DNA of 64,000 bases, taken from positions 43,927-107,926 of the forward strand of contig NZ_CANNGG010000006.1 of the NCBI RefSeq assembly GCF_947504135.1, in the 5' to 3' direction. The stretch comes from an uncultured Tenacibaculum sp. (GTDB lineage Bacteria; Bacteroidota; Bacteroidia; Flavobacteriales; Flavobacteriaceae). Each line of letters starts with the position of its first letter. The first letter of the stretch is position 1. Position numbers and translations under genes: made by a program. This document shows, piece by piece, positions 2,395 to 11,388 of this stretch. A model generated the notes under the pieces. That model was not told where the DNA came from, made no database searches, and was given only the letters and a program-made list of their open reading frames with translations.

Positions 2395-4557
2395 ATGAAA
2401 AAATTAATGCTATCAGCTTTGGCATTTAGTCTTATTTTTGCGTCTTGTAAAAAGCAAGAAATGAAGAAAGATATCAAAGCTCCAGTTGCTGAAAAACAGC
2501 CTACAAAGTTAGAGAAACATGGAGATGTACGTACTGATGATTATTTTTGGATGCGTTTAACCGACGAGCAAAAAAATGCTGAGGTTAAAGATGAACAAAC
2601 TCAAAAAGTATACGATTACCTAAACGCAGAGAATACTTATTATGATGAAATGACGAAAGAAACGAAAGAGTTTCAAGAAGAGTTGTTTCAAGAAATGAAG
2701 GGACGTATAAAAGAGGACGACGAGTCTGTTCCGTATAAAAAAGATGGATACTTTTACATAACTCGTTATGAAAAAGGACAGCAATATCCTATTTATAGCC
2801 GTAAAAAAGAAACTTTAGAGGCTGAAGAAGAAATCATGTTCAATGTGAATAATGAAGCAAAAGGATATGATTATTTTCAGTTAGGAGGGTTAAATGTGTC
2901 GCCAGATAATAAAATGACAGCTTTTGCTACAGATACAGTAAGCCGTCGCCAGTATTTTATCAGAATTAAAAACTTAGAAACTGGTAAGATCTATAAAGAT
3001 ATCATCGAAAACACGACTGGAGGTTCTGTATGGGCAAACGATAATAAAACGTTGTTTTATGCTAAAAAAGACCCTGTAACATTACGTTCTTCAAAAATTT
3101 ACAAACATACGTTGGGTTCTGATGCATCTTTAGATGAATTAGTGTATGAGGAAAAAGATGATACGTTCGGAGCTTTTGTTACCAAGTCAAAATCTAAAGA
3201 TTATATCATAATAGGTTCGTATAGTACAGTTTCTACAGAGTACCACGTATTAGATGCTAATAACCCTGATGGAGAATTACGTATTATTCAACCTCGTGAG
3301 CGTGATTTAGAATATGATGTAGCACATTACGGAGATCATTTTTACATCAAAACGAATAAAGATGGAGCTACTAACTTTAAGTTAATGAAAACTCCTGTAG
3401 ATAAACCTGGCAAAGAAAACTGGGTAGATGTAATTCCTCATAGAGATGACACTTTATTTGAAGATTTTTCAATTTTTAAAGACTATTTAGTTTTAGAAGA
3501 AAGAAACGAAGGATTGAATAAAATACGTATCAAACGATGGGATGGAACTGAAGACTACTACTTACCTTTTGAAGAAGAAACCTATTCAGCAGGGGTATAT
3601 GGAAATCCTGAATTCGATACAGAGGTAATTCGTTATTCGTATAATTCAATGACAACTCCAAGTTCTGTGATTGATTTCAATATGAAAGAAAGGTCAAAAG
3701 AAGTTAAAAAGGAGCAAGAAGTTTTAGGAGGAAAGTTTGATAAAAATAATTATGTAAGCAAGCGTATATGGGTACCTGCTCGTGATGGTAAAAAAGTAGC
3801 GTTATCAATTGTACACCATAAAGATACGAAGCTTGATAAAAACACACCAATCTTACAATATGCTTACGGTTCTTACGGGTATACAATTAATGATGGGTTT
3901 TCAACAACACGTTTAAGTTTATTAGATCGTGGATTTGTATATGCATTAGCGCATATTAGAGGAAGTCAGTATTTAGGGCGTGAGTGGTACGAAGATGGTA
4001 AAATGTTGAATAAGAAAAACACCTTTACCGATTTTATTGATTGTTCTAAATATTTAATAGATAACGGTTATACATCACCAGAGCATTTGTATGCTATGGG
4101 AGGTTCTGCTGGAGGTTTATTAATGGGAGCTATTGTTAATATGAATCCAGAGTTATATAACGGAATCATAGCTGCAGTACCGTTTGTAGATGTAATTTCT
4201 ACGATGTTAGATGATAGTATTCCATTAACAACAGGTGAGTATGACGAATGGGGAAATCCTAATGATAAAGAGTATTACGATTATATCAAATCGTATTCTC
4301 CATACGATCAAGTTGAGGCAAAGGCATATCCAAATATGTTAGTAACTACAGGATTACATGATAGTCAAGTACAATACTGGGAGCCAGCAAAATGGGTAGC
4401 TAAACTACGTGAGTTAAAAACTGATAATAATTTATTATTCTTACATACAAACATGGAAGCAGGTCACGGAGGAGCGTCTGGAAGGTTTGATGCTTTAAAA
4501 GAAACAGCAGAAGAATACACGTTCTTTTTAATGTTAGAAGGTAAGTTAAAAAAATAA
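2395..4557 (+). CDS. ptrB: Oligopeptidase B (S9A peptidase), lipoprotein
   Basis: 720 aa; lipobox FASC; GGSAGG nucleophile, DSQVQYWEPAKW, AGHGG catalytic His. Confidence 0.92.
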   Translation: MKKLMLSALAFSLIFASCKKQEMKKDIKAPVAEKQPTKLEKHGDVRTDDYFWMRLTDEQKNAEVKDEQTQKVYDYLNAENTYYDEMTKETKEFQEELFQEMKGRIKEDDESVPYKKDGYFYITRYEKGQQYPIYSRKKETLEAEEEIMFNVNNEAKGYDYFQLGGLNVSPDNKMTAFATDTVSRRQYFIRIKNLETGKIYKDIIENTTGGSVWANDNKTLFYAKKDPVTLRSSKIYKHTLGSDASLDELVYEEKDDTFGAFVTKSKSKDYIIIGSYSTVSTEYHVLDANNPDGELRIIQPRERDLEYDVAHYGDHFYIKTNKDGATNFKLMKTPVDKPGKENWVDVIPHRDDTLFEDFSIFKDYLVLEERNEGLNKIRIKRWDGTEDYYLPFEEETYSAGVYGNPEFDTEVIRYSYNSMTTPSSVIDFNMKERSKEVKKEQEVLGGKFDKNNYVSKRIWVPARDGKKVALSIVHHKDTKLDKNTPILQYAYGSYGYTINDGFSTTRLSLLDRGFVYALAHIRGSQYLGREWYEDGKMLNKKNTFTDFIDCSKYLIDNGYTSPEHLYAMGGSAGGLLMGAIVNMNPELYNGIIAAVPFVDVISTMLDDSIPLTTGEYDEWGNPNDKEYYDYIKSYSPYDQVEAKAYPNMLVTTGLHDSQVQYWEPAKWVAKLRELKTDNNLLFLHTNMEAGHGGASGRFDALKETAEEYTFFLMLEGKLKK

Positions 4558-4583: not shown

Positions 4584-4651
4584 AAGTGTCATTGCGAAAG
4601 CAACGAACAATCTCAACAGATTTTTCGTGTCTAATTTTCGTAATGACACTT
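4584..4651. repeat. REP-like palindromic element
   Basis: 16-bp arms AAGTGTCATTGCGAAA (4584-4599) and TTTCGTAATGACACTT (4636-4651), one mismatch; inner CAATCT/AGATT arms. Confidence 0.7.
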
Positions 4652-4671: not shown

Positions 4672-5667
4672 ATGAAAAGACATCAAGGTATTACCAATTC
4701 AATAATAGATTTAGTAGGTCAAACCCCCATGATTCAACTGCATCGAATTACCCAAGATTTACCGGGTACGTATTATGCAAAAGTTGAAGCTTTTAATCCA
4801 GGTCACTCTGCTAAAGATAGAATTGCACTTCATATTATTGAAACTGCTGAAGAAAAAGGAATTGTAAAAGAAGGAGATATTATTGTTGAAACAACATCTG
4901 GTAACACAGGATTTTCATTGGCAATGATTAGCATTGTAAAAGGATATCGCTGTATTTTGGCAGTGAGTGATAAGTCTTCTCAAGACAAAATAGACATGTT
5001 AAAGTCTATGGGAGCAGAAGTGCATGTTTGTCCTGCAAATGTTACTCCTGACGATCCTCGTTCGTATTACGAAGTAGCTAAAAGATTGCATAGAGAAAAT
5101 CCAGGGTCTATTTATATCAATCAGTATTTTAATGAACTAAATATTGAAGCACATTATAAGAGTACGGGACCAGAAATTTGGGAACAAACCGACGGAAAAG
5201 TAACTCACGTAGTTGCAGCAAGCGGGACAGGAGGAACGATTTCTGGAACAGCACGTTATTTAAAAGAACAAAATCCTGATATTCAAATTTTAGGAGTCGA
5301 TGCGATGGGCTCAGTGATTAAAAAGTATCATGAAACAGGTGAGTTTGATTCAAATGAAATTAGTCCTTATAAAATTGAAGGATTAGGTAAAAACTTAATT
5401 CCTACTTCTACCGATTTTGATGTGGTAGATGTATACGAAAAAGTATCAGATAAAGAAGCGGCTTTAAAAGCTAGAGAATTAGTAAAAGCAGAAGGTATTT
5501 TTGCAGGGTATACTTCAGGAGCAGCCTTACAAGCTACACAACAATACGCAGACAATGGTTTTTTTGATGAAAATAGTGTAGTAGTCGTAATTTTACCAGA
5601 TCACGGTTCTCGTTATATGAATAAGATTTATTCTAATAACTGGATGAAAGAGCAGGGGTTTTTATAG
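4672..5667 (+). CDS. PLP-dependent cysteine synthase/cystathionine beta-synthase family protein (no CBS domain)
   Basis: [15 protein letters not shown] (PLP lysine), TTSGNTG, ASGTGGT, PDHGSRY. Confidence 0.92.
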
Positions 5668-5701
5668 GTAGTTCTTACTTACTCTTGTAGTCCTTAGGAA
5701 G
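5626..5701 (+). repeat. 76-bp direct repeat, copy 1 (3' end of the cysK-like gene plus 3' end of the convergent gene)
   Basis: ATTTATTCTAATAACTGGATGAAAGAGCAGGGGTTTTTATAGGTAGTTCTTACTTACTCTTGTAGTCCTTAGGAAG; 75/76 identical to 6519-6594. Confidence 0.95.
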
Positions 5702-6424
5702 ATTAAAAGAGAATTTTTTCATTTCTTCTCTTTTAATTTTATTGGTAATTGTATAGTTCTTTTTGTTAAGAAATTGTACCATAATAGGATAATTAGCTTT
5801 ATTATTAACGTTTTTTAATTCACCTTCTTTGTATTCGAAAATATTAAATGTCCAATAATTATGATTGCTATAATTTGTTAAGGTCATTGTAATAATTTCA
5901 TGGTTTCCGTCTCCATCAAAATCGTATTCTGGTCGAATAGTATCCATTTTATCAGTAAAAGAAATCTTATGGAAGGTAGAGTCTTGTGTTTGAAATAAGT
6001 ATATTACTCTAACATTCATTGCTGAAATACCATTACCCATATACGGAATTATCATTTTTATGTCTTCCAGACCATCACCATTTATATCTCCAACGTAAAT
6101 AGGATCGTGACCTGTATTTATTGTTGAAAATAACATGCTTTCTGGAAATTTGCAGATTTCTTTTTTATTACGAAATAAGCGAATCGTTGAAGTGTTTTCG
6201 AAATAAGTAAGTAAAGAGGTTAATTGAACTGTTAAGCTCTTTTTATTATCAAAAAAAGAGTCAATAGTAAGTGTGTGATGTATCGTATTTTTTGTGTCTA
6301 ACCAATCGTAAAGCTTCCAGTTCTTATATTCTTTATATTCTGTAGAAGGAAGTTTTTCAAAAGGAAATTGAGCAAACGAAAAGCTGCTAATTAAGAGAAA
6401 TATAGTGAAGTAAAATTTTTTCAA
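5675..6424 (-). CDS. Hypothetical secreted protein with Dx[DN]xDG (FG-GAP-like) calcium-binding motifs
   Basis: TTG start, signal peptide MKKFYFTIFLLISSFSFAQ; GDINGDGLED and YDFDGDGNHE. Confidence 0.7.
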   Translation of the reverse strand: MKKFYFTIFLLISSFSFAQFPFEKLPSTEYKEYKNWKLYDWLDTKNTIHHTLTIDSFFDNKKSLTVQLTSLLTYFENTSTIRLFRNKKEICKFPESMLFSTINTGHDPIYVGDINGDGLEDIKMIIPYMGNGISAMNVRVIYLFQTQDSTFHKISFTDKMDTIRPEYDFDGDGNHEIITMTLTNYSNHNYWTFNIFEYKEGELKNVNNKANYPIMVQFLNKKNYTITNKIKREEMKKFSFNLPKDYKSK

Positions 6425-6518
6425 AGCGCAGCAATTTACAATAGTTTTATTTGAGATTATAAAGATAAGAAGTTTTTTTACTTTAGAGTTTACTGTATGT
6501 AAATTGACTTTGTTAAAA

Positions 6519-6594
6519 ATTTATTCTAATAACTGGATGAAAGAGCAGGGGTTTTTATAGGTAGTTCTTACTTGCTCTTGTAGTCCTTAGGAAG
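6519..6594 (+). repeat. 76-bp direct repeat, copy 2
   Basis: Identical to 5626-5701 except one A>G. Confidence 0.95.
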
Positions 6595-6671
6595 GGTTTC
6601 CTTTAATTGACAATTTAGCAAACTGGGGAATTAACTATAGACAATCGATGTGTGAGGAGAAATGATTTAAT

Positions 6672-6711
6672 ATTTATTCTGATAACTGGATGAAAGATTG
6701 ATGTTTTTTAG
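6672..6711 (+). repeat. Degenerate third copy of the cysK-like 3' end
   Basis: ATTTATTCTGATAACTGGATGAAAGA (25/26 match to copy 1) followed by TTGATGTTTTTTAG. Confidence 0.8.
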
Positions 6712-7341
6712 TTAATCTATACCAAAGCAATAAATTTTAATAGTGTAGCTATACCCCATGGCAGTTTGTCCACTGTTTAGCGCAGGAATGATAGCATATT
6801 CTCCTTTTTTAAGTATGTCATCAAAAATTATTTCGTAGGTGTTTTTTTCAATCTTTTTAAGCTTGAAAGTTACTTCATTTTCAGAAGTATCTCTTGCATT
6901 TCCTCCCAATGCTATACTACTTTGAATAAATTGTCTTTTTTTTCTTTTTTCATTAGCCTTTATAACGGTGAATAAATCTTCAGGATTTAAAAGTCCTTCA
7001 TATTTAAATACAATTTTTGGTATTGATTGATTATTAAATCTAACATTAGATTTAGCTTTAAATGCTATTAATTGAGTTTTAACGCCTCCATAACCTAGAG
7101 CCTTGACTTTTGCTTCGTATTTTGCTTTAACTTTTTCTAAGCTTACTAAATCATCTCGATTTAAATAATAGGGTTCATTAAAGTTTTTTAAATTTAATTT
7201 TTTTTCATCTGTTATTTTTTTTGACCAAGTTCCGTCTGAGTGTAGTATAAAAATTTCACCACTAGAGGTTACAGCTTCTTTTGTTTGAGCTAAAGATGGA
7301 GATACGATAATCAGTATAAGTAAAATAAGATACTTTTTCAT
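6712..7341 (-). CDS. Hypothetical secreted protein
   Basis: Signal peptide MKKYLILLILIIVSPSLAQ (ATG at 7341 preferred over TTG at 7347); ILHSDGTWS motif near the N-terminus. Confidence 0.65.
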   Translation of the reverse strand: MKKYLILLILIIVSPSLAQTKEAVTSSGEIFILHSDGTWSKKITDEKKLNLKNFNEPYYLNRDDLVSLEKVKAKYEAKVKALGYGGVKTQLIAFKAKSNVRFNNQSIPKIVFKYEGLLNPEDLFTVIKANEKRKKRQFIQSSIALGGNARDTSENEVTFKLKKIEKNTYEIIFDDILKKGEYAIIPALNSGQTAMGYSYTIKIYCFGID

Positions 7342-7379
7342 AGTCAAAATTTTTAATAATCAAAAGTATTAAAAAAGAA

Positions 7380-8636
7380 CTATTCATACAACAAATACTG
7401 TTCACGTACCTTTTTAAAGTCATTTAGACCTTCTTGCCAACTTGCTTTGATTTCTTCTTCAGAAAGTCCTTGTTCAATTTGTTCTTGTAGTTTGGTAGTA
7501 CCTGCTAGTTTGGTAAAAAAAGTATTAAAAAAATCTTTTTTAGGAGACTGCTCGTATGCTTTTTTAAGCCAATTAAGATCTAAGTTAGCTAAACGGCTGT
7601 GAGTGCTTAAATCTTCTCCAAAACATAATTCTCCTTTATATTTTGGGTGTTTTGCTCCCTCATTCGATTGTGGAGTAAAACTAAAACCAGTTTTTTCTAT
7701 ATATGGCGAACCATAAATTTGAAATTGTTTGTCGGTTCCTCTTCCAGCAGAAACGTTTGTTCCTTCAAAAAAGCACAAACTAGGGTATAGGTTAATCGAA
7801 ACATCGTTCGGTAAATTAGGCGATGGTTTTATCGGTAAACTATATGTTGATTGATGTGTGTAATTTTCTAGCGGAATTACGGTTAAATCACATTGAATAC
7901 CATTTGCTAACCACTTTTCACCATTAATCATTTTACCGTATTCACCAATTGTCATTCCGTAAACTACAGGAACAGGGTGCATGCCTACAAAGCTTTTGTG
8001 TTCAGGTTCTAACATTGGTCCGTCAATATAATGTCCGTTCGGATTTGGTCTGTCAAGTAGTATCACAGGAATATTAGCCTCGGCACAAGCTTCCATTACA
8101 TAATGCAGTGTAGAAATATAGGTATAAAAACGAGCTCCTACATCTTGAATGTCAAAAACAACAGCATCAATTCCATTTAATTGTTCAGGCGAAGGTTTTT
8201 TGTTTTTTCCGTACAACGAAATAATTGGAATCCCTGTTTTTACATCTTTTCCATCAGCTATGGCTTCACCAGCATCAGCTTTTCCTCTAAAACCATGCTC
8301 AGGAGCAAATACTTTTTGAACGTTAATTCTATCGTAATTATGTAAATAATCTACTAAGTGATGTTGTACCATTTCAGACCCCATAATGTTGGGGGCAACT
8401 TCAGCTCGTTGTAACACTTGCAATACGGAAGTTTGATTTGCAACTATGGCAATATTTTTATTCTTTAAAAGAGGAAGGTAAGCTGTAGTTCTATCAGCAC
8501 CCGTTTTAATTGTTTTTGGCTGTTCTTGTATTGGCACTTCTTTAGTAGTTGATTTTTTTTGTTGTTGTGCACAAGAAGAAAATTGAAAACTGAATACTAA
8601 AAAAAGTAAAAAAACGTAATTAAAAGTAAGCTTCAT
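7380..8636 (-). CDS. DUF1343 / exo-beta-N-acetylmuramidase NamZ family lipoprotein
   Basis: FAPEHGFRG, FDIQDVGARFYTYIST, LDRPNPNG, PSPNLP, SAGRGT; lipobox FSSC. Confidence 0.9.
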   Translation of the reverse strand: MKLTFNYVFLLFLVFSFQFSSCAQQQKKSTTKEVPIQEQPKTIKTGADRTTAYLPLLKNKNIAIVANQTSVLQVLQRAEVAPNIMGSEMVQHHLVDYLHNYDRINVQKVFAPEHGFRGKADAGEAIADGKDVKTGIPIISLYGKNKKPSPEQLNGIDAVVFDIQDVGARFYTYISTLHYVMEACAEANIPVILLDRPNPNGHYIDGPMLEPEHKSFVGMHPVPVVYGMTIGEYGKMINGEKWLANGIQCDLTVIPLENYTHQSTYSLPIKPSPNLPNDVSINLYPSLCFFEGTNVSAGRGTDKQFQIYGSPYIEKTGFSFTPQSNEGAKHPKYKGELCFGEDLSTHSRLANLDLNWLKKAYEQSPKKDFFNTFFTKLAGTTKLQEQIEQGLSEEEIKASWQEGLNDFKKVREQYLLYE

Positions 8637-10029: not shown

Positions 10030-11388
10030 ATGAAGTACGCAAAAAATATATTAGAAACTATTGGTAACACACCTTTAGTTCAATTAAACTCAGTAACAAA
10101 AGAAGTAGATGCTTTAGTATTAGCTAAAGTAGAAACGTTTAATCCAGGAAACTCTGTAAAAGACCGTATGGCACTTAAAATGATAGAAGATGCTGAAGCA
10201 GATGGTCGTTTAAAGCCAGGGGGTACCATTATAGAAGGTACTTCAGGAAATACAGGAATGGGATTAGCATTAGCAGCTATTGTAAAAGGGTACAAATGTA
10301 TTTTTGTAATTTCAGATAAGCAATCAAAAGAAAAAATGGATATTCTGCGTGCTGTAGGAGCAGAGGTAGTTGTTTGCCCTACGAATGTAGAACCAGATGA
10401 TCCTCGTTCATATTATTCAGTATCTAAGCGTTTAGGGGAGGAAACTCCAAACTCTTGGTATGTAAATCAATATGACAATCCTTCAAACGCACAAGCACAT
10501 TATGAACAAACAGGACCAGAAATTTGGGAACAGACCGATGGTAAAATCACACATTTTGTTGTTGGAGTAGGAACAGGAGGAACGGTTTCAGGGACTGCTA
10601 AGTTTTTAAAAGAAAAGAATCCAAATATTAAAATTTGGGGAGTAGATACGTACGGATCTGTATTTAAAAAATATCACGAAACAGGTATTTTTGATGAGAA
10701 TGAAATCTACCCATATATCACGGAAGGTATTGGTGAAGATATTTTACCTAAAAATGTTGATTTTTCTTTAATTGATGGATTTACAAAAGTAACTGACAAA
10801 GATGCTGCTATTTACACACGCAAAATAGCTAAGGAAGAAGGAATTTTTGTAGGGAATTCAGCAGGTTCAGCTATTAAAGGATTATTACAGTTAAAAGACG
10901 AGTTTAAACCTGATGATGTAGTGGTAGTGTTGTTTCACGATCATGGAAGTCGTTATGTAGGAAAAATGTTTAATGACGATTGGATGCGTGATAGAGGTTT
11001 CTTAGATGAAGAAATTACTACAGCTGAAGATTTAATTAAAGATCATATAGATAAACCATTAGTAACTGTTCAAACAGAAGAATTAGTGTCACATGCTATT
11101 GAAAGAATGCGTACATTTAAAATATCACAGATTCCTGTAAGAGATGCAAATGGGTTTGTAGGTTCAGTAGATGAATCAGCATTATTATATAATTATTTAG
11201 AAGATAAAAATATAGCAGAAAAGCCTATTAAAGATGTAATGGGAAGAACATATCCTACAGTTAAAAAATCAGCTTCTATTGATGAGGTATCTAAGTTAAT
11301 TAACAAAGAAAATCAAGCAGTTTTAGTTGATTTAGAAAATGGAAAACACCACATCATTACAAAATATGATATAATTAGAGCTATTTAA
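10030..11388 (+). CDS. Cystathionine beta-synthase family protein with C-terminal CBS domains
   Basis: AKVETFNPGNSVKDR, GTSGNTG, GVGTGGT, HDHGSRY; C-terminal CBS pair (ISQIPVRD...VGSVDE, HHIITKYDII). Confidence 0.92.
   Translation: MKYAKNILETIGNTPLVQLNSVTKEVDALVLAKVETFNPGNSVKDRMALKMIEDAEADGRLKPGGTIIEGTSGNTGMGLALAAIVKGYKCIFVISDKQSKEKMDILRAVGAEVVVCPTNVEPDDPRSYYSVSKRLGEETPNSWYVNQYDNPSNAQAHYEQTGPEIWEQTDGKITHFVVGVGTGGTVSGTAKFLKEKNPNIKIWGVDTYGSVFKKYHETGIFDENEIYPYITEGIGEDILPKNVDFSLIDGFTKVTDKDAAIYTRKIAKEEGIFVGNSAGSAIKGLLQLKDEFKPDDVVVVLFHDHGSRYVGKMFNDDWMRDRGFLDEEITTAEDLIKDHIDKPLVTVQTEELVSHAIERMRTFKISQIPVRDANGFVGSVDESALLYNYLEDKNIAEKPIKDVMGRTYPTVKKSASIDEVSKLINKENQAVLVDLENGKHHIITKYDIIRAI

Follow-up and report, generated by a model that had tools for sequence, protein, structure and literature searches.

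What could have repeated the end of a conserved enzyme gene three times within about one kilobase, with genes for secreted proteins lying between and beside the copies? The question arises from a locus in the window (the whole 64,000-nucleotide stretch analysed) of an uncultured Tenacibaculum, where the original prediction saw a cassette-like array resembling repeated att-type integration. Part of that proposal stands, as one insertion after another at the 3' end of the gene left the displaced tails behind, but its site-specific mechanism finds no support: no tyrosine recombinase accompanies the array. We think it reasonably probable that the array consists of stacked recombination scars in an integrase-free hypervariable islet between capA and namZ. 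The anatomy of these scars, the intermediate states found in relatives, the absence of an integrase and the variability of the boundaries can all be read directly from the genomes compared.

The capA tail and its copies

The gene whose end is repeated, initially labelled cysK-like, matches Pfam PALP (E = 3e-80) and the NCBIfam cysteate synthase family NF053679 with 634 bits (cut-off 600), and its synteny with an S9 peptidase gene is kept across the genus. It is therefore a cysteate synthase gene, capA, rather than cysK, and its product is an enzyme of the sulfonolipid pathway. A repeat search of the window recovered a three-copy family (5620-5664, 6513-6557 and 6666-6710) and a 79-nt pair (5623-5701 and 6516-6594; 97% identity, 893 bp apart), which corresponds to a 76-bp unit with a single mismatch (A at 5681, G at 6574). 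The final 42 bp of capA are present at 5626, 6519 and 6672 and at no further site in the 2.6-Mb genome. Likewise, the 26-bp core ATTTATTCTRATAACTGGATGAAAGA has exactly three matches, all on the + strand (up to 3 mismatches, whole 2,618,841-bp genome), against none genome-wide for the reversed pattern used as control, so that the three predicted copies are borne out (Table 1).

Copy 1 is the genuine 3' end of the 331-aa capA (stop codon 5665-5667), and the gene A stop codon lies 7 bp past that of capA. Copy 2 holds the capA tail together with the final 9 codons of gene A, and the pseudo-stop of copy 3 (6709-6711) adjoins the gene B stop (6712-6714). The displaced copies contain stops and frameshifts. 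A small inverted repeat, TTATT-CT-AATAA, marks the left edge of copies 1-3, but they do not share the common left boundary that had been proposed: copy 3 differs from copy 2, and its less decayed orthologues extend the capA homology at least 4-6 nt leftward. A promoter and terminator scan of 5400-7500 gave no signal exceeding background. Two candidates for a fourth, heavily decayed tail were rejected or remain doubtful: local alignment did not beat the genomic null, either in the gap between gene B and namZ (7342-7379; p = 0.65) or in the haplotype that carries gene C (p = 0.03).

Table 1. Features of the capA-namZ interval and its flanks, in window coordinates.
Feature	Coordinates	Strand	Evidence
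capA, cysteate synthase, 331 aa; conserved left islet flank	4672..5667	+	ORF, Pfam, NCBIfam, synteny
Copy 1, a 76-bp unit made up of the functional capA tail (42 bp with its TAG stop), 7-bp spacer, last 9 codons and stop of gene A (opposite strand)	5626..5701	+	Repeat search
Gene A, secreted 249-aa FG-GAP/VCBS-like repeat protein, accessory	5675..6424	-	ORF, domain search, homologues
Gene A upstream (promoter) region; right end of the 893-bp unit	6425..6518	-	Sequence and carrier comparison
Copy 2: displaced capA tail (pseudo-tail 2), continuing into 34 bp left over from the 3' end of an earlier gene A	6519..6594	+	Repeat search
3'-end relic of a HxlR-family regulator gene (PLIDNLANWGINYRQSMCEEK, then stop), joined to the gene A relic at an old deletion junction	6595..6665	+	BLASTP
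Copy 3: oldest displaced capA tail (pseudo-tail 3, IYSDNWMKD, then stop), right behind the hxlR stop; pseudo-stop abuts gene B	6666..6711	+	Repeat search, null-tested alignment
Gene B, secreted, 209-211 aa, near-orphan, function unassigned; one of several alternative slot occupants	6712..7347	-	ORF, homologue search
namZ, exo-beta-N-acetylmuramidase; conserved right islet flank	7380..8636	-	Pfam NamZ_N and NamZ_C

Both secreted-protein genes had been described as orphans. This does not apply to gene A, which has 152 homologues across Bacteroidota and an FG-GAP/VCBS-like repeat; gene B comes close to the description, yet has two matches, and an AbiU2-like gene occupies its slot in other strains. 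Close copies of gene A (at least 92% identity) occur within the genus only in G000, G084 and G075 (3 of 267 species), always at the capA site, and in T. agarivorans, outside the clade, gene A has no capA gene nearby. The junction of the gene A promoter with copy 2 (TTGTTAAAA joined to ATTTATTCT) is identical in all carriers, and clear homology of the gene A upstream region to G075 is limited to the ~45 bp nearest gene A.

Copy 3 and the hxlR relic

The sequence between copies 2 and 3 (6598-6665), first taken for ~80 bp of unrelated residue, is the 3' end of a HxlR-family gene (17 of 21 residues identical, E = 7e-13, BLASTP), and intact hxlR genes occupy the same position in CP187509.1, G058, G077, G186, G042, G055 and G075. 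The alignment score of copy 3 (56) was reached by no null window, decayed orthologues of this pseudo-tail lie behind hxlR in six other genomes, and CP187509.1 has the intact order dsbA, hxlR, pseudo-tail 3, gene B. Copy 3 is an old capA tail displaced by the long-ago insertion of a DsbA-like/HxlR pair. One relative, G075, carries capA, gene A, dsbA, hxlR and pseudo-tail 3 in this order, without pseudo-tail 2, and represents the state before the deletion that left the relics. The internal residues are products of ordinary microhomology deletion.

Variation of the islet among relatives

Across the genus, the interval between capA and namZ ranges from 22 bp to more than 4 kb; in 13 close species it measures 546-4,094 bp and contains differing genes, and in G005 and G007 the two flanking genes abut. 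Among strains whose CapA proteins are identical, the islet occurs in at least four haplotypes of differing gene content, two of them scar-free, and wholesale islet swaps leave no scars. The haplotypes regain homology within ~10-25 bp of the namZ stop codon. The gene content thus varies among both conspecific and congeneric genomes, as anticipated, and the interval is a hypervariable islet that changes fast in Tenacibaculum genomes. Repeated capA tails were not found in 20 other species of the genus.

Two genomes, G147 and G062, lack the 893-bp unit and show capA, a tail, the gene A relic and the hxlR relic, with a junction in TTTAATT. The 76-bp unit of the window is single-copy in G147 (89.5% identity). 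These empty sites match the product expected from recombination between the repeats, although they do not thereby reveal the mechanism; as had been proposed, the 76-bp repeats should be able to delete gene A while capA stays intact.

A separate insertion has taken place in G055, where an SDR and TetR module lies between tail duplications of 57-58 bp that are 98% identical (57/58) and correspond to a single copy in the relatives G077, G186 and G058. Homologues of this module elsewhere in the genus do not lie beside capA and are only 77-79% identical to the cargo, whereas the two repeat copies are nearly identical, a pattern in keeping with target duplication. For the start of the insert (~200 bp, of which 192 bp were searched), no real match or donor was found in 267 genomes.

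Origin of copy 2

In the window strain, 75 of the 76 positions of copy 2 are identical to copy 1. All other carriers have the same junction and the same 893-bp spacing, but their copy 2 is decayed (75.6% identical to the unit), the window strain being the sole one among more than 10 carriers with a near-perfect version. The near-perfect repeat is thus a strain-specific short patch and not a sign of recent integration; recent activity of the unit is not supported either, as it occupies one and the same site in every other carrier. The islet is otherwise ~0.2% diverged from that of G084/SRR9020973, with all 28 differences confined to 6536-6603, while divergence amounts to 5-14% in the genes that flank it, those for the S9 peptidase and NamZ. 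Position 5681 is A in copy 1 of the window and G in all relatives and in copy 2. Plain conversion of copy 2 by copy 1 explains only part of the patch, since its 3' end (GGAAGGGTTTCCTTTAATTG) agrees with the G147 allele and not with copy 1. In the other strains, moreover, copy 2 is 24% diverged and apparently older than the adjoining hxlR relic (~5% diverged), which requires an additional allele exchange. Past the capA tail, copy 2 matches the end of gene A for 34 bp up to the deletion junction, the sequence beyond being gone. At the junction where copy 2 was created (gene A promoter to ATTTATTCT), neither a donor nor a microhomology was identified.

The main alternative to an insertion upstream of the relics is that copy 2 arose by in-place tandem duplication of the 893-bp segment (from -42 of capA to the gene A promoter) in a G075-like ancestor, followed by a single deletion across dsbA that also took the greater part of the second gene A and of hxlR. 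In this case, G147 and G062 would be secondary losses of the unit via its two tails, loss through direct repeats being easy and able to recur, and copy 3 would stay an older insertion scar. Tandem duplication predicts exactly what copy 2 contains, a capA tail and a gene A tail in the register of copy 1. It also suits the restriction of close gene A copies to the capA site in 3 of 267 species, which makes a second independent acquisition of gene A less parsimonious, and spontaneous tandem arrays carrying the tail of the upstream gene are known in this genome (C1:434048-435976). Nevertheless, copy 2 and the relic of most carriers are not of the allele type of copy 1 (identity is 77% to the G062 type and 76% to the unit), which is unexpected if they were once identical. 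The right end of the unit cannot be compared with what lay beyond it, as the deletion took that sequence; homology of this end (6470-6518) to the spacer downstream of dsbA, which would have placed a duplication joint at TTTAT, was rejected (score 27.5 against a null mean of 25). Finally, the G055 event cannot be a tandem duplication, as foreign DNA lies between its repeats, so that an insertion route with tail duplication exists in any case. We regard tandem duplication as a rather unlikely, though still credible, source of copy 2.

Is a site-specific recombinase involved?

Direct repeats duplicating the target 3' end flank the inserts (76 bp at 5626 and 6519, with a 26-bp core at 6672; 57-58 bp in G055), as att-type integration would have it. 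In that case, the capA tail would be the attachment site of small cassettes mobilised by an integrase acting in trans, and the array a series of attL, hybrid att and attR sites. Single-gene units whose repeats regenerate the gene 3' end, no fewer than three duplications of this one tail within the clade and the small inverted repeat at the left edges are in keeping with this, as are six PF00589 tyrosine recombinases encoded in the genome. However, these are all located on other contigs, the 129-kb contig C6 of the window has no PF00589 match, and in more than 10 related loci none of the genes called up to 6 kb to either side is a mobility gene, upholding the earlier statement that no integrase is nearby (the genome-wide recombinase search covered the tyrosine recombinases of PF00589). 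No recombinase gene lies in or beside the inserted unit.

The boundaries also argue against site-specific integration. Of the three independent tail duplications, copy 2 has its left end at -42, the orthologues of copy 3 have theirs at -46 or further out, possibly at -51, and G055 has its own at -57, so that no constant core or crossover point is shared among the insertions and the predicted fixed boundary is not supported. The right boundaries merely follow the points where haplotypes diverge, the stop codon or the gene A relic. In G075, gene A was inserted without any tail duplication; many haplotypes are scar-free, wholesale exchange of the islet being at odds with cassette behaviour; and the 26-bp core is absent from the rest of the genome. 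A second locus in the window genome, on contig C3, bears the same type of scar at the tail of a methyltransferase gene, which favours a general recombination route over a capA-specific att site. Taken together, these observations make att-type integration very improbable. An integron can be ruled out on anatomy, as there is no integrase and the boundaries TTGTTAAAA to ATTTATT and TGATTTAAT to ATTTATT share no palindrome. That the near-perfect copy 2 is an assembly artefact, an idea invited by the 16-contig draft and by the uniqueness of this copy, is scarcely credible, since the same architecture and 893-bp spacing recur in independent assemblies including complete chromosomes, the 76-bp repeat is below typical read length and no assembler would invent the G at 6574 (A in copy 1) or the G147-matching 3' end of the patch.

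A proposed history of the islet

For the stacked scars that we favour, we infer both an order of events and a molecular route for each insertion. New gene modules would have recombined in repeatedly at the very end of capA; wherever the incoming joint fell within its last 40-60 bp, the gene would have kept a full tail and a second, silent one would have been stranded downstream. The first step was probably the insertion of the old DsbA-like/HxlR pair, stranding the original tail as copy 3 beside an older neighbour, gene B. Gene A may then have been inserted directly behind the capA stop, after which a deletion between 7-bp microhomologies (TTTAATT) would have removed dsbA together with the bulk of gene A and of hxlR, leaving a gene A relic of 34-75 bp fused to a 70-bp hxlR relic. 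In a fourth step, the 893-bp unit (tail, gene A and its promoter) would have been placed upstream of this relic, giving rise to copy 2. Last, and confined to the window strain, recombination over a short tract would have made copy 2 nearly identical to copy 1, ectopic conversion by copy 1 being the likeliest form. Entire islet haplotypes also pass from one lineage to another, through ordinary homologous recombination within the flanking genes capA and namZ, and the present 76-bp repeats can delete gene A by RecA-type recombination. The insertions themselves may have proceeded by single crossover of a circularised fragment or by homology-facilitated illegitimate recombination. Stacked scars provide no mechanistic explanation for the clustering of joints inside the last 60 bp of capA.

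A bolder possibility, which we consider unlikely, is that the last, conserved 40-80 bp of core genes serve as portable homology arms for integrase-free cassette traffic in this Tenacibaculum clade, and perhaps widely. A module between two tails would loop out as a circle by RecA recombination, pass between cells and enter a matching tail by single crossover, displacing the resident one. The re-homogenised 76-bp repeats would make gene A of the window excisable today, and the same cycle would also have produced the insert of G055 and, on contig C3, the scar at the methyltransferase tail. If such tail-mediated exchange of circles is real, it would constitute a general integrase-free route for single genes between related bacteria.

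With or without such traffic, the stacked scars of this locus document step by step, and with unusual completeness, how a small hotspot of accessory genes was built without mobile-element machinery, with living intermediates in sister species for tail-duplicating insertion, microhomology deletion, allele swapping and the short-tract conversion that regenerates recombinogenic repeats. They also hold a warning for annotators: near-perfect direct repeats around a gene need not signal recent or site-specific integration.

Comparison with known systems

Integrative elements and genomic islands that insert at the 3' end of a tRNA or protein gene duplicate the target end in their repeats and so leave the gene intact, and tandem accretion of islands leaves partial repeats between cargo blocks. 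The window resembles them in its duplicated target end and in the partial repeats between cargo, but it has no integrase, constant core or element-like gene set, and its units measure 0.7-1.8 kb. Integron cassette arrays, or attC clusters without IntI, similarly consist of serial single-gene units with the newer ones nearest one fixed end. Unlike these, however, the capA islet has neither IntI nor attC palindromes, its repeats are copies of a coding tail, and its genes, equipped with upstream regions of their own, point towards the anchor gene.

The closest known cases are insertion with long target duplication and 3'-end displacement. The latter has produced arrays at rhs, CDI and T6SS effector-immunity loci, for which two routes without integrase have been proposed, single homologous crossover of a circular intermediate and homology-facilitated illegitimate recombination (Jackson et al. 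2009, PMC2935791; Kirchberger et al. 2017, PMC5361080). Like the window, these arrays present an intact gene followed by dissociated 3' fragments of variable length from successive insertions, and the three capA tails indeed vary in core length (42, at least 46 and, in G055, 57 bp). The target here is, by contrast, a housekeeping-type enzyme gene. Whereas the displaced tips of rhs, CDI and T6SS genes are alternative toxin domains kept with immunity genes under selection, the tails in the window are dead relics of 26-76 bp; old and new tails encode the same CapA C-terminus, with no alternative functional C-termini or immunity genes, and the cargo of the islet is unrelated to toxins or immunity.

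Insertion with long target duplication was reportedly described by Nobusato and colleagues in 2000. As in the window, foreign genes are inserted without transposase or integrase, between direct repeats longer than 30 bp that align to one copy in a related "empty" genome. This definition applies to G055 (57-58 bp) and, when G147 serves as the empty genome, to the 893-bp unit, and neither insert contains other mobile-element genes (gene A alone in the window, SDR and TetR in G055). In most strains of the window lineage, however, the two repeat copies differ in allele type, and conversion at a later stage has blurred whether both stem from the recipient's own target. The published cases, which include Haemophilus influenzae examples with 46-bp repeats overlapping a gene 3' end, were collected for restriction-modification cargo (Furuta, Abe & Kobayashi 2010, PMC2853133), unlike the secreted FG-GAP-like protein, SDR/TetR pair and DsbA/HxlR pair of the window clade. 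The processes seen here have thus already been described for restriction-modification genes and rhs/T6SS loci and, as no integrase is involved, the case is a fairly ordinary one; it is nonetheless an instructive example, in which, unlike in the published long target duplications, several events are stacked at one gene end together with deletion and conversion.

The repeated tail of capA and its neighbourhood

The 3' end of capA, which encodes a 331-aa PLP enzyme, forms a family of three copies in the window (see table below). A pattern search of the whole 2.62-Mb assembly, allowing up to three mismatches, found the 26-bp core of this tail only three times, always at the capA locus (a reversed-pattern control gave 0 matches), which bears out the repetition noticed in the original prediction. 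The gene itself had been labelled cysK-like and is instead assigned to cysteate synthase CapA by the NCBI equivalog model (634 bits, cut-off 600). Gene A and gene B had both been described as orphans. Gene A, whose product is a secreted FG-GAP/VCBS-like protein, has 152 homologues across Bacteroidota; for gene B the description nearly stands, with only two database relatives, one of them 96% identical and bearing the source name Tenacibaculum ascidiaceicola.

The genes within 6 kb on either side encode an S9 peptidase, YbaB, DUF58, MoxR, an FtsX-type permease, a CBS-PALP enzyme and a radical-SAM protein, and none among them is a mobility gene. A second PALP enzyme, 4 kb downstream of capA and 55% identical to CapA, looks like a cystathionine-beta-synthase (~452-aa open frame, weak CBS-domain match), and its position is conserved in relatives. 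An inverted repeat occupies the whole spacer that separates the S9 peptidase gene from capA; lying upstream of capA, it may serve as a terminator or as a regulatory hairpin.

Features of the capA locus and related structures (positions in the window unless a contig or locus is named)
Feature	Position	Strand or orientation	Description
Spacer inverted repeat	4584-4651		16 nt, 94% complementary, 36-nt loop (AAGTGTCATTGCGAAA ... TTTCGTAATGACACTT)
Copy 1	5620-5664		True capA 3' end
Repeat pair	5623-5701 / 6516-6594		79 nt, 97% identity, spacing exactly 893 bp
Gene A	5675-6424	minus	Stop 7 bp past copy 1
Gene A inverted repeat	5699-5740		15 nt, 93% complementary, 12-nt loop; in gene A 3' coding end
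Copy 2	6513-6557		capA tail, then final 9 codons of gene A repeated
Clustered differences	6536-6603		28 differences from G084 and SRR9020973
Copy 3	6666-6710		Ends in pseudo-stop touching gene B stop codon
Gene B	6712-7347	minus	
namZ			Right flank of islet
Second PALP enzyme	about 10042-11004 (G000:C6:53968-54930)		
capA-dsbA hairpin	L066 (CP187509.1), about 4,300-4,440	capA orientation	ATACATAAGCAATAGCGG ... about 50 nt ... GTTGCTATTGCTTATGT; also in G058, G077, G186, G042, G055
SDR+TetR insertion	L077 (G055:C1:114000-123500), about 1,015-2,871	capA orientation	
Second tail scar	C3:529810-533280 of G000		Gene at 532561-533280 (minus), tail copy at 529810-529885
Small-gene array	C1:434048-435976 of G000		Three ~190-bp tail copies

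A variable interval between capA and namZ

In two Tenacibaculum genomes (G005 and G007) capA and namZ abut, with 22-25 bp between them, and in most other species examined namZ lies kilobases away or is missing from the capA neighbourhood. Among 13 close species (CapA 96-99% identical) the interval ranges from 546 to 4,094 bp and differs in content, with genes for AbiU2-like, AbiC-like, erythromycin-esterase-like, DUF2834 and DUF4405 proteins and a radical-SAM/SPASM pair. Strains with identical CapA carry at least four contents, namely gene A with gene B, gene A with an AbiU2-like gene, a 243-aa gene alone, or ~466 bp with small ORFs only, so that the anticipated variation across conspecific and congeneric genomes is indeed present. 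No pseudo-tails occur in the last two of these haplotypes. Identities along the locus are mosaic; the genome G147, for example, is near the window in capA and namZ and far in the next gene.

Probable successive displacement of the capA tail

In CP187509.1 and SRR33145576 the gene order is capA, a dsbA-like gene (minus strand), hxlR (plus strand), copy 3, gene B and namZ. The ~80 bp that follow copy 2 in the window, formerly considered unrelated residue, retain part of hxlR: positions 6598-6665 translate to PLIDNLANWGINYRQSMCEEK and a stop, with 17 of 21 residues matching the HxlR C-terminus of those two relatives (E = 7e-13). Copy 3 lies directly 3' of the hxlR stop in the window, CP187509.1, G055, G058, G075 and G042, and must be old because it has decayed differently in each. 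We read it as the original capA tail, which would have been stranded when the dsbA-hxlR pair inserted upstream. In its less decayed orthologues, homology to capA reaches at least TAAG (-46 from the capA 3' end), possibly the TGA of hxlR; its left boundary therefore differs from that of copy 2, and the common boundary originally proposed does not hold. Past the capA stop, before the dsbA-like gene, lies a long conserved hairpin, probably a terminator acting in both directions.

For copy 2, sister species preserve intermediate states. G075 has the order capA, gene A (92% identity), dsbA, hxlR and copy 3; no pseudo-tail separates its gene A from dsbA. G062 and G147 have capA with its functional tail, a gene A relic (about 75 or 34 bp) and an hxlR relic (about 70 bp). 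The G062 relic junction falls in TTTAATT, which occurs in both gene A (…CTCTTTTAATTTT…) and hxlR (…CTCCTTTAATTGAC…) and therefore points to a microhomology deletion that took out dsbA along with the greater part of both gene A and hxlR. The right arm of the inverted repeat in gene A includes this same motif, and the hairpin segment is itself deleted from the gene A relic of both the window and G147. In the window lineage the 893-bp unit (capA tail, gene A and its promoter) comes first, followed by copy 2 and the same relic junction; relative to this unit G147 and G062 represent an empty site. Copies of gene A with at least 92% identity were found in only 3 of 267 species, always at the capA site.

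Two routes may account for the 893-bp unit. The allele types favour its re-insertion into an already deleted haplotype, the decayed copy 2 of other carriers being as similar to the G062 type (77%) as to the 76-bp near-perfect repeat (76%). They are less favourable to an older tandem duplication of which the unit would be one half, the other having been hit by the deletion, with G147 and G062 as later losses. Whether re-inserted or duplicated, the unit is flanked by 76 bp of near-identity, which suffices for occasional deletion by RecA recombination. Deletion of the 893 bp would yield a G147-like site with capA intact, as originally predicted.

A strain-specific patch in copy 2

Exact gene A matches occur in over 20 contigs, among them GCA_001027945.1, GCA_024124505.1 and several from SRA assemblies, all with copy 2 at the identical 893-bp spacing and with an identical left junction (between TTGTTAAAA and ATTTATTCT). 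In these other carriers copy 2 has decayed to a pseudo-tail with 75.6% identity to the 76-bp unit, as in the complete 3,344,178-bp chromosome of G084, which otherwise has the arrangement of the window. In the comparison with G084 and SRR9020973, divergence amounts to 5-14% in the flanking S9 peptidase gene and in namZ, and to only ~0.2% in the islet (5640 to 7400), except for 28 differences crowded into 6536-6603. This distribution argues that the near-perfect repeat is a short strain-specific recombination patch within a recently shared islet; the decay of copy 2 elsewhere and the confinement of the differences rule out the repeat as a sign of fresh insertion. The patch carries G at 6574, like copy 1 of all other strains (copy 1 of the window strain has A at 5681), and its final ~10 bp (GGAAGGGTTTCCTTTAATTG) correspond to the G147 allele, unlike copy 1. 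Ectopic conversion from copy 1 would thus explain most of the patch, not all.

The genome of the window (G000) measures 2.62 Mb (estimated completeness 99.97%), and relatives with ~99.8%-identical islets and 97-99%-identical neighbouring genes about 3.3 Mb; its lineage may be markedly reduced, or its assembly may lack some accessory DNA.

Independent insertions and their possible route

A genus-wide pattern search found multi-copy capA tails in only three of 267 genomes: that of the window, G084 and G055. In G055, a 1.75-kb SDR+TetR module sits at the capA stop between two capA-tail copies (57-58 bp, 98% identical), and beyond the downstream copy come the ancestral spacer and dsbA. The duplicated stretch runs from -57 to the stop codon. 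Other species have homologues of the module (77-79% nucleotide identity), never adjoining capA, and for the first 200 bp of the insert the search for a donor gave no result. Its structure indicates an event independent of that in the window. Comparison of boundaries thus gives three tail duplications, each with a left end of its own, and the G075 insertion without duplication.

A second displaced tail of the same kind lies outside the window on contig C3 of the same genome, where a 239-aa methyltransferase-like gene has its last 55-77 bp repeated (87-94% identity) 2.7 kb downstream, past inserted thioesterase-like and NADH-dehydrogenase-like genes. A weaker relic follows a thioesterase+metE block in G058, G187 and G075, and none is present in G147. 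This scar favours a general route of recombination over an attachment site peculiar to capA. Elsewhere in the genome, the 3' end of a 536-aa gene is present in three copies (74-82% identity), each overlapping the beginning of a gene for a small lipoprotein (143 and 134 aa). They make up a tandem array of small genes, each with a relic of the upstream gene's tail.

The suggested att-type integration is made unlikely by the differing left ends and the scarred second gene, and also by the lack of tyrosine recombinases on the 129-kb contig, which agrees with the integrase-free neighbourhood first noted; attC-like structures are absent from the boundaries. The best-supported origin of the array is integrase-free insertion duplicating the target gene tail, with deletion, allele exchange and conversion as later steps. 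Each insertion would have proceeded by recombination at the capA tail, with a circle crossover or an illegitimate joint as candidate routes. Published proposals for comparable structures are entry of a circularised fragment, bearing a piece of a conserved gene, by single crossover (Jackson et al. 2009, PMC2935791), and homology-facilitated illegitimate recombination (Kirchberger et al. 2017, PMC5361080). Restriction-modification genes supply catalogued cases of "insertion with long target duplication", which lack mobility genes and frequently overlap the 3' end of a gene (Furuta et al. 2010, PMC2853133).
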